Translations under genes and position numbers: made by a program | Shown: positions 46,698 to 47,285 of the stretch, piece after piece | How the letters are laid out: the number at the start of each line of letters is the position of its first letter | Numbering within the stretch: the first letter of the stretch is position 1 | Notes under the pieces: generated by a model | The model's database searches: none | Told to the model about the DNA's origin: nothing | Seen by the model: the letters and a program-made list of their open reading frames with translations, nothing else | DNA from: Escherichia coli | GTDB lineage: Bacteria > Pseudomonadota > Gammaproteobacteria > Enterobacterales > Enterobacteriaceae | Assembly: GCF_003334385.1 (NCBI RefSeq) | Contig: NZ_QOWN01000021.1 | DNA length: 64,000 nucleotides | Strand: one strand, 5' to 3'

Positions 46698-47285
46698 AAT
46701 TTTTCCTGTCTCCAGGCCCCAAAGTAAATAATAAAAAATTCCTAAAGCTTAAGGAAAAAATATGCCCAATAAATTGGCGATGAATGCTGATTAAAATCAA
46801 GAAAAACTGCCATTAAGACATTGAAGTTGCTGTTTTTATACATAGATAACAAAACGCATATTTAGCGGTTGGCAATTATCACATAATAATGTGTGCAAAT
46901 TGATGGTGGATTGATGCAAATTTGTTAATTGCAATGGTGTTAGCTGCGGTTGTGCGCTCAAAAAATAATCTAATATGAGCATAGGTTGACGATATATATT
47001 ATATACTTCGTTAAGATGATTGTTGTATCTCGTTAAAAAATAAAATAATTTTTCCTTGATTGCATTTTGTCATCAAAAAAGACTTGGTTTTTCTTTTTTG
47101 ACTATTCCCATCGCAGAAAACGACGCATCATCTTTAATCGATGCGCGGAAATATTTAACTTGAACAAGCGGAAATAAATAGAGCAGCTATTCAGATTATT
47201 CTTTATGTTGGGTCTATTAAGGTTATGTTAATTGTAGCTTTGCTATGCTAGTAGTAGATTTTTGATAAATGTTTTATGGTCACAA

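Follow-up and report, generated by a model that had tools for sequence, protein, structure and literature searches.

What occupies the 588 bp between dcuC and pagP in Escherichia coli? Both genes are transcribed away from this stretch, and an earlier model reading made from the letters alone (the sequence-only reading) described it as an AT-rich, gene-free gap, large enough to hold either complex regulatory architecture or an unannotated small RNA or small open reading frame (ORF). We examined it within its surroundings, a stretch of 64,000 nucleotides of E. coli DNA (contig NZ_QOWN01000021.1 of assembly GCF_003334385.1) that we call the window and whose positions are used throughout. Our analysis indicates that the gap is probably the shared control region of dcuC and pagP, with a compact promoter at each end, a spacer coated by H-NS between them and no gene of its own.

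The gap covers positions 46698–47285, from the start codon of dcuC (ATG at 46697, − strand) to that of pagP (ATG at 47286, + strand), and thus lies upstream of both divergent genes, as had been described. The window is colinear with E. coli K-12 MG1655 609272–673271, from which it departs by about 15 single-base differences over the first 48.9 kb and then by a 1-bp indel in ybeM. The gap itself corresponds to MG1655 655969–656556, with 1 base different, and RefSeq annotates no feature inside that interval. Thought to be one of the longest non-coding stretches, it is in fact the longest intergenic gap of the window by the MG1655 annotation, the next being 378 bp. Its GC content is 31.3%, compared with 51.8% for the whole window and 42.1% for the window's other 5.6 kb of intergenic DNA. 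The minimum for any 588-bp stretch of the window, 30.8%, belongs to the one beginning at 46718, and the gap lies essentially at that floor: a GC content as low as its own is seen in only 0.1% of stretches of this length.

The suggestion of A/T tracts resembling those of curved DNA holds for the tracts and falters for the curvature. The gap contains 12 A/T tracts of at least 5 bases where 3.6 ± 1.8 are expected, a number reached by none of 2,000 composition-matched shuffles. The phasing of AA/TT at 10–11 bp is not significant in the gap, as its power at 10–11.2 bp was reached by 64 of 500 shuffles. A wedge model puts the predicted curvature of the gap only about 2 s.d. above that of shuffles; locally it is highest around 46907 and 47085. 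The A-tracts are not helically phased, and intrinsic curvature of the gap is weakly supported. The gap is present as 1 copy per E. coli genome, which rules out a dispersed repeat or a mobile element as its origin.

We collected 80 loci encoding PagP relatives, one genome per species. In 48 of these dcuC is divergent to pagP, and 46 gave a usable spacer; spacer length among the syntenic genomes ranges from 281 to 1024 bp. A sensitive BLAST search of the E. coli gap against the syntenic spacers revealed one block, 46698–46804, common to essentially all of them. Across the 46 syntenic enterobacterial genomes, conservation of these dcuC-proximal ~107 bp stops abruptly just beyond 46804, past an FNR box. 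The features of this end are:

46787–46800, unstranded: FNR box CTGATTAAAATCAA, found by consensus scan, matching 9 of 10 positions of TTGAT-N4-ATCAA and conserved across genera.
46759–46764, − strand: dcuC −10 hexamer CATATT, which is CACATT in most other genera.
46698–46752, − strand: inferred dcuC 5′ untranslated region (UTR) of about 55 nt, from the spacing to the FNR box and the −10, with ACAGGGGAAA conserved across genera.

Read in the direction of dcuC, the alignment across genera runs from TTTATTGATTTTAATCAGCAAG through about 14 variable bases to TTTATTxGGCACATT and then to the conserved ACAGGGGAAA before the ATG. The sequence carrying the −10, GGCACATT, is conserved in the 46 genomes and, like the FNR box, is invariant in 11 E. 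coli strains; a Shine–Dalgarno-like AGGA lies 8 nt ahead of the dcuC ATG. The −10 sits 30–35 nt from the centre of the FNR box, as a class II promoter expects, a spacing that would place the transcription start site (TSS) of dcuC at about 46752 ± 2 and the centre of the box at about −41.5.

Published data bear on this end of the gap as well. Myers 2013 lists a predicted FNR site of the same sequence at 655281 of U00096.2, scoring 12.38 bits. Because this published coordinate coincides with the FNR box of the window, published positions can be converted validly by subtracting 608494 from the U00096.2 coordinate. Thus converted, the FNR ChIP-seq/chip peak of that study at 655340 (U00096.2) falls at 46846 and a σ70 ChIP-seq peak at 655235 (U00096.2) falls at 46741, at the dcuC promoter, and dcuC is classed there as directly FNR-activated. 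We propose that dcuC would be driven by a class II FNR-dependent promoter contained within ~107 bp of its start codon.

At the opposite end, the last 140 bp before pagP align across genera with the conserved pattern tGTTAAG.tt..aTT.A..TT...tTtG.TA...T, and the following features can be recognized:

47204–47231, + strand: three PhoP-type half-sites, TATGTT, TATTAA and TGTTAA, at 11-bp spacing, found by consensus scan, with the tGTTAAG..aTT.A block conserved across genera.
47244–47249, + strand: pagP −10 TATGCT, which aligns with the mapped Salmonella −10 TATTAT.
47256–47285, + strand: inferred pagP 5′ UTR of about 30 nt, from a TSS placed near 47256 by the −10.

The sequence-only reading had proposed a search for direct-repeat PhoP boxes near 47190..47250, and the string that it quoted (47203–47230) does cover the three 11-bp-phased half-sites. 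Each matches the (T/G)GTTTA-N5-(T/G)GTTTA type at 4–5 of 6 positions. The upstream pair, TATGTT-GGGTC-TATTAA (47204–47220), ends 23 nt ahead of the pagP −10 and is homologous to the footprinted Salmonella PhoP box; the third half-site, TGTTAA (47226–47231), completes a downstream pair (47215–47231) that ends 12 nt ahead of the −10; both distances suit a box set at a multiple of the helical turn. In Salmonella, the pagP −10 is TATTAT and the footprinted PhoP box, CTGTTTATAGTTTGTTAAG, lies 23 nt upstream (Zwir et al. 2012). The PhoP site of E. coli crcA has been put 32 bp from the TSS, versus 44 bp in Salmonella (Harari et al. 2010). The 32-bp spacing would fit an E. coli PhoP site formed by the downstream half-site pair, with a TSS at about 47256.

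A published σ70 ChIP-seq peak at 655742 of U00096.2 (Myers 2013) converts to 47248 and is ~10-fold higher anaerobically. Control of pagP by PhoPQ and by EvgAS has been published, as has an RpoN/NtrC SELEX peak at ~47266, where our consensus scan recognized no −24/−12 element. In our model, a promoter that depends on PhoP and occupies no more than ~85 bp ahead of the start codon would drive pagP.

What, then, of the ~400 bp between these two promoters? The published binding data point first to H-NS:

46096–47064 and 47090–47789, unstranded: H-NS-occupied patch, from the anaerobic ChIP-chip regions 654590–655558 and 655584–656283 (U00096.2) of Myers 2013, Table S3.

H-NS ChIP had been suggested as one check of the gap, and these anaerobic regions cover nearly all of it: in ChIP-chip data of low resolution from a single growth condition, they span the whole gap except a 25-bp break at 47065–47089 and extend into the 5′ parts of dcuC and pagP. 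A genomic SELEX study of RpoD flags the dcuC/pagP spacer as HNS, and published work reports that pagP–lacZ rises 18-fold in a Δhns strain and that SlyA and RcsB-GadE also act on pagP. In an arcA mutant, dcuC is down 4.1-fold and pagP 2.8-fold, and an ArcA matrix match, unaccompanied by a ChIP peak, has been described in the shared spacer. Our consensus scans of the gap found no site for SlyA, CRP, ArcA, IHF, Fur, NarL or DcuR, and only weak or unassignable matches for RpoN, NtrC, EvgA, RcsB, the GadE box, Fis and the H-NS motif. The expectation of complex regulatory architecture, including control by FNR, PhoP and EvgA, is borne out by the published FNR site and peak, the PhoP-type half-sites, the H-NS ChIP regions and the published EvgA control of pagP. 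Silencing by H-NS generally requires an extended AT-rich tract, and H-NS probably needs the spacer itself to silence pagP.

The middle of the gap also contains sequences that look like signals for transcription:

47011–47039, + strand: promoter-like TTAAGA-17-TAAAAA, from the RpoD genomic SELEX study, binding RNA polymerase in vitro.
47045–47073, − strand: promoter-like ATGACA-17-AATTAT facing dcuC, from a promoter scan and the RpoD genomic SELEX study.
47121–47146, unstranded: inverted repeat ACGCATC...GATGCGC, found by scan, terminator-like on the − strand and not conserved.

The middle of the gap may be transcribed to some extent, because RNA polymerase binds promoter-like sequences of this region in vitro. 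In vivo, Myers 2013 reports no σ70 ChIP-seq peak between 46741 and 47248. The TTAAGA-17-TAAAAA element is probably cryptic and silenced in vivo, and ATGACA-17-AATTAT is probably cryptic too.

The latter element bears on a different reading of the gap, in which it would be a second, distal promoter of dcuC with a TSS near 47038 and a leader of ~340 nt, making the gap largely dcuC 5′ UTR. The element is detected by scan, the RpoD SELEX study assigns it to dcuC, and the database TSS of dcuC falls outside the FNR peak region (Myers 2013). However, most alleles other than that of K-12 have a degraded −35, which reads ATAACA or ACAACA in B2, O55/O157, O145 and STEC383; the in vivo σ70 peak on this side lies at 46741, with none near 47040; the region is bound by H-NS; and the putative leader is neither conserved nor marked by a structure signal. 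We regard a distal dcuC promoter as very unlikely and favour the reading in which the FNR-dependent promoter next to the start codon would drive dcuC.

Could the middle instead encode a small RNA? The sole positive hint comes from Shigella, where a screen in S. flexneri 301 predicted Ssr31, a 295-nt RNA on the pagP strand, from a promoter and a terminator in the pagP/dcuC spacer and scored it 'Yes' by RT–PCR. This assay carries no size or strand information, and read-through or carried-over DNA could give the same signal as a discrete RNA; we found no northern blot, RACE or follow-up on Ssr31 in the literature. An E. coli equivalent on the pagP strand could draw on the + strand TTAAGA-17-TAAAAA sequence and on the hairpin at 47121–47146.

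Several lines of evidence speak against it. First, an Rfam search at E ≤ 10 over 45000–49000, on both strands, returned only noise in the gap, and folding of 50 windows of 100 nt, again on both strands, gave no z-score below −2.7 and no significant signal. Second, a scan found no + strand terminator in the gap, and the − strand hairpin (47146–47123) comes with a short U run and is preceded by no conserved sequence. Third, among 11 E. coli alleles the hairpin at 47121–47146 has energies between −15.7 and −2.1 kcal/mol: its left arm mutates, the other arm shows no compensation, and the hairpin is weakened in O55/O157, M114, O145 and STEC383. An A/T hairpin at 47073–47101 goes from stable to nearly absent among the 11 alleles, also without compensation. 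Fourth, the sequence is unalignable outside Escherichia, and the middle lacks a σ70 peak. Finally, and as weak evidence, the portion of a Cappable-seq list that we examined holds no + strand TSS between 44583 and 47899; pagP itself is silent there. Because the strongest nearby + strand Cappable-seq TSS, which converts to 48096 inside cspE, is unexplained, we give these data little weight. A small RNA on the pagP strand therefore has a slim chance at most of being the occupant of the gap.

For a small protein, the search is bounded by length. No ORF of 60 aa or more had been seen in the gap, and the longest is indeed 48 aa, one of eight of 20–48 aa. That ORF (46836–46982, − strand) is the sole one that starts with ATG; it has no Shine–Dalgarno sequence, O55:H7 lacks its start and a frameshift interrupts it in the B2 strain 81009. 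In the core, the ORFs begin with TTG and have no Shine–Dalgarno sequence, and every one of them is disrupted in one or more E. coli alleles by a stop, a frameshift or the loss of its start. Another three, at the dcuC end (46681–46875), likewise with TTG starts and without a Shine–Dalgarno sequence, are open in the alleles, two of them solely through their overlap with conserved promoter DNA. None of the ORFs in the gap has the hydrophobicity of a type I toxin, and the MG1655 RefSeq annotation, which includes recent small proteins such as yldA, has none in the gap. Searches with tblastn and tblastx against the spacers of other genera found nothing beyond conserved promoter DNA, which also speaks against a pseudogene remnant. 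We consider an unannotated small protein extremely improbable. No support emerged for either the small RNA or the small ORF that had been proposed, and the negative outcome is useful, as the gap need not be pursued as a candidate for either.

The preferred reading, a shared control region with an H-NS-coated spacer, leaves the question of how such a spacer evolves. Its most variable part is confined to a short interval:

46950–47140, unstranded: hypervariable, very AT-rich core of ~190 bp, from the diversity among 11 strains; H-NS-bound.

Outside Escherichia, BLAST against the syntenic spacers gave no alignment of the middle of the gap. Identity to E. whittamii and another Escherichia species is 53–57% over the middle, compared with 66–67% at third positions of the dcuC and pagP codons. 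Within the species, the 588 bp are present in 5,382 of 5,426 complete E. coli genomes, 1,552 of these being 90–95% identical; for the core, 1,684 of 5,377 genomes are 80–90% identical to the window. Identity of at least 95% holds for the 5′ 398 bp of dcuC in every genome but 1 and for the pagP coding sequence in every one but 28, and the centres of two control intergenic regions, the equally AT-rich citC–dpiB and dsbG–ahpC, reach that level in all but 1–3 genomes. Nucleotide diversity among the 11 strains peaks at 0.09–0.14 in 46912–47112 versus 0.01–0.02 in the flanks, and 30% of core columns vary, several with three alleles. Between K-12 and O157:H7, the core differs by 17.6% and the two coding regions by 0.3–0.5%. 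STEC383 pairs an O157-type core with an M114-type pagP; recombination therefore moves the core independently.

Base composition follows another course. The GC content of the middle is 30–33% in all 11 E. coli alleles, and that of the spacer is 28–39% in most syntenic genomes, though their sequences are unalignable. Composition is conserved without sequence, which suits DNA whose job, if any, is being AT-rich.

One island in the spacer does keep its sequence:

46900–46927, unstranded: three direct repeats, TTGATG, TTGATG and TTGTTA, at 11-bp spacing, found by motif search with 0 mismatches and unique in the window.

The island reads TTGATG-GTGGA-TTGATG-CAAAT-TTGTTA. In five aligned E. coli alleles the repeats are unchanged, and changes fall between them. 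Of 47 syntenic spacers, 25 have the pattern TGAT-N7-TGTTAA at 88–131 bp from the FNR box, versus 0.7% of shuffled spacers; its carriers are Escherichia, most Citrobacter, and many Enterobacter and Lelliottia. As the length of the spacer changes, the repeat follows the dcuC side. By its arrangement the island is probably a candidate site for a response regulator of the OmpR/PhoB type. As a test for DpiA/CitB, we searched the control region of the neighbouring cit genes for the motif and did not find it. Naming ArcA as the binder is a guess, prompted by the TGTTAA half-site and by the expression changes in the arcA mutant. The genes on either side of the repeat are both induced by anaerobiosis and both have lower expression in that mutant.

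These patterns allow two further readings of the spacer to be weighed. At its simplest, the central 400 bp would be inert, drifting filler, bound by H-NS through AT-richness alone, with all regulation in the promoter-proximal ends. Such filler would explain why the middle cannot be aligned between genera, why the core evolves faster than third codon positions and why hairpins and promoter-like hexamers are not conserved; the wide range of spacer lengths, with ~290 bp in Klebsiella and Raoultella, points the same way. Yet AT-richness is kept in most genera despite the change of sequence, A/T tracts are enriched beyond composition, the conserved island at 46900–46927 lies inside the spacer, and pagP is strongly repressed by H-NS, with its general need for an extended tract. 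We therefore consider purely inert filler unlikely. Conversely, the core may be a hotspot at which regulatory alleles diversify at the level of the species, with at least five deep allele classes, 11–19% apart, that recombination shuffles separately from the flanking genes and that could set the lineage-specific strength of H-NS silencing. This idea is speculative and we hold it doubtful; if it is true, core alleles could set the lineage-specific inducibility of lipid A palmitoylation by PagP, a trait linked to immune evasion and biofilm survival, and could also make or destroy cryptic promoters by lineage.

Returning to the shared control region that we favour, the ~400 bp between the promoters would act as an AT-rich, A/T-tract-rich platform under H-NS. 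This platform would hold pagP nearly off until PhoP, SlyA or RcsB-GadE counter-silence it, and would also suppress the promoter-like sequences of the core. The spacer would turn over quickly because its base composition, and not its exact sequence, is maintained, with the 11-bp-phased island at 46900–46927 as the exception.

The locus and its components, namely a class II FNR promoter, a PhoP-box promoter, and H-NS silencing and counter-silencing, are largely known already, and the finding as first stated adds little. The hypervariable core and the distal repeat are new observations, of modest novelty, and may merit a small follow-up.

Each component has known relatives. The dcuC promoter resembles class II FNR promoters of the dmsA/yfiD type in its near-consensus TTGAT-N4-ATCAA box, which would be centred ~41.5 bp from the predicted TSS, in its published FNR occupancy in vivo and in its FNR-dependent expression; it differs in that one half-site is CTGAT instead of TTGAT and in that its TSS is a predicted one. 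The pagP promoter resembles PhoP-activated promoters of architecture IV, such as Salmonella and E. coli pagP/crcA (Zwir et al. 2012), with 11-bp direct repeats upstream of a weak −10, and the box and −10 of Salmonella pagP align positionally with the E. coli sequence. Unlike these promoters, E. coli pagP has degenerate half-sites (4–5 of 6 positions) and three of them in phase, and the published E. coli site lies one repeat nearer the TSS than that of Salmonella (32 versus 44 bp).

As a whole, the pagP side is similar to promoters that are silenced by H-NS and counter-silenced, such as Salmonella pagC and ugtL and E. coli gadE with its 750-bp sensory region. As in these promoters, an AT-rich tract extends far upstream, H-NS occupies more than 1.5 kb, loss of hns strongly derepresses the gene, and SlyA, PhoP and RcsB-GadE relieve the silencing. 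By contrast with this group, the same tract adjoins an FNR promoter that is unmasked by H-NS ('None' in the NAP column of Myers 2013). A second difference lies in ancestry: pagP and the genes around it belong to the ancestral, syntenic gene content of Enterobacteriaceae and form no recent island.

Finally, the core invites comparison with regulatory switching and hypervariable intergenic regions, reportedly described in E. coli by Oren and colleagues in 2014, and with what the tool Piggy is said to call 'switched IGRs'. As in those cases, the intergenic DNA diverges much more than the genes beside it, and its alleles are combined in mosaic fashion. Here, however, the core alleles are still homologous (80–98% identical, with few indels) and show no replacement by unrelated DNA, and only a 190-bp core is affected while both promoters are retained. 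With its divergence within E. coli far above that of the flanking genes, the core could be a compact natural test case for the evolution of H-NS-silenced promoters.

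The 588-bp gap between dcuC (− strand) and pagP (+ strand), at 46698–47285, contains two sequence features that differ in their variability within E. coli.

46900–46927: three direct repeats, phased at 11 bp (TTGATG, TTGATG and TTGTTA).
46950–47140: a 190-bp hypervariable core, with diversity within E. coli far above that of its flanks.

Across 11 representative E. coli strains, nucleotide diversity reaches 0.09–0.14 in the core, compared with 0.01–0.02 in the flanks. Two control intergenic centres, citC–dpiB and dsbG–ahpC, show no diversity of this kind. K-12 and O157:H7 differ by 17.6% in the core and by just 0.3–0.5% in dcuC and pagP. 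In 31% of genomes (n = 5377), identity to the window over the core is just 80–90%. The alleles occur in mosaic combinations. Separately, the intergenic centre between fepB and entC has 3–7 matching places per E. coli genome and therefore holds a dispersed repeat element (15330–15520).

The phased repeats are identical across five aligned E. coli alleles, with changes confined to the intervening spacers. Of the 47 syntenic enterobacterial spacers, 25 carry the pattern TGAT-N7-TGTTAA, set at a comparable distance from the FNR box of the dcuC promoter (46787–46800 in the window). Judged by sequence, the repeats are a candidate regulator site.

The usual account of pagP does not include anaerobic control. 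In published arrays of the two genes (45312–47846), anaerobic induction was around 20-fold for dcuC and 3.4-fold for pagP, and an arcA mutation lowered their expression 4.1-fold and 2.8-fold, respectively. The σ70 peak of pagP is around tenfold higher anaerobically.

Other strains repeatedly carry insertion sequences around this AT-rich locus: IS5 within pagP in O68:H12 97.3 (locus L002, 3589–4818), IS1A within pagP in FDAARGOS_1250 (hit H81), and IS1 in place of dcuC and most of the gap in MINF_8D (locus L087, 1748–2445). Between genera, PagP has changed far more rapidly than the adjacent DcuC, with amino-acid identities to E. coli of roughly 70–88% and 87–98%, respectively (loci L003–L082). 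The spacer of Kosakonia oryziphila (L052) is enlarged to 1024 bp and contains RND efflux pump-like ORF fragments, probably a pseudogene remnant; no such fragments occur in the E. coli spacer.

The 5′ UTR and coding region of cspE (47836–48278) score 124 bits against RF01766, the cspA thermoregulator family of Rfam, which has a gathering score of 78. The strongest + strand Cappable-seq start in the neighbourhood, 656590 in U00096.2, converts to around 48096, within the cspE coding sequence, and is discrepant with a σ70 ChIP peak at 47978. Compared with MG1655, PagP residue 84 is Cys (47535) rather than Arg, and ybeM, which encodes deaminated glutathione amidase (48754–49548), is an intact 264-aa ORF, unlike the frameshifted pseudogene of that reference strain.
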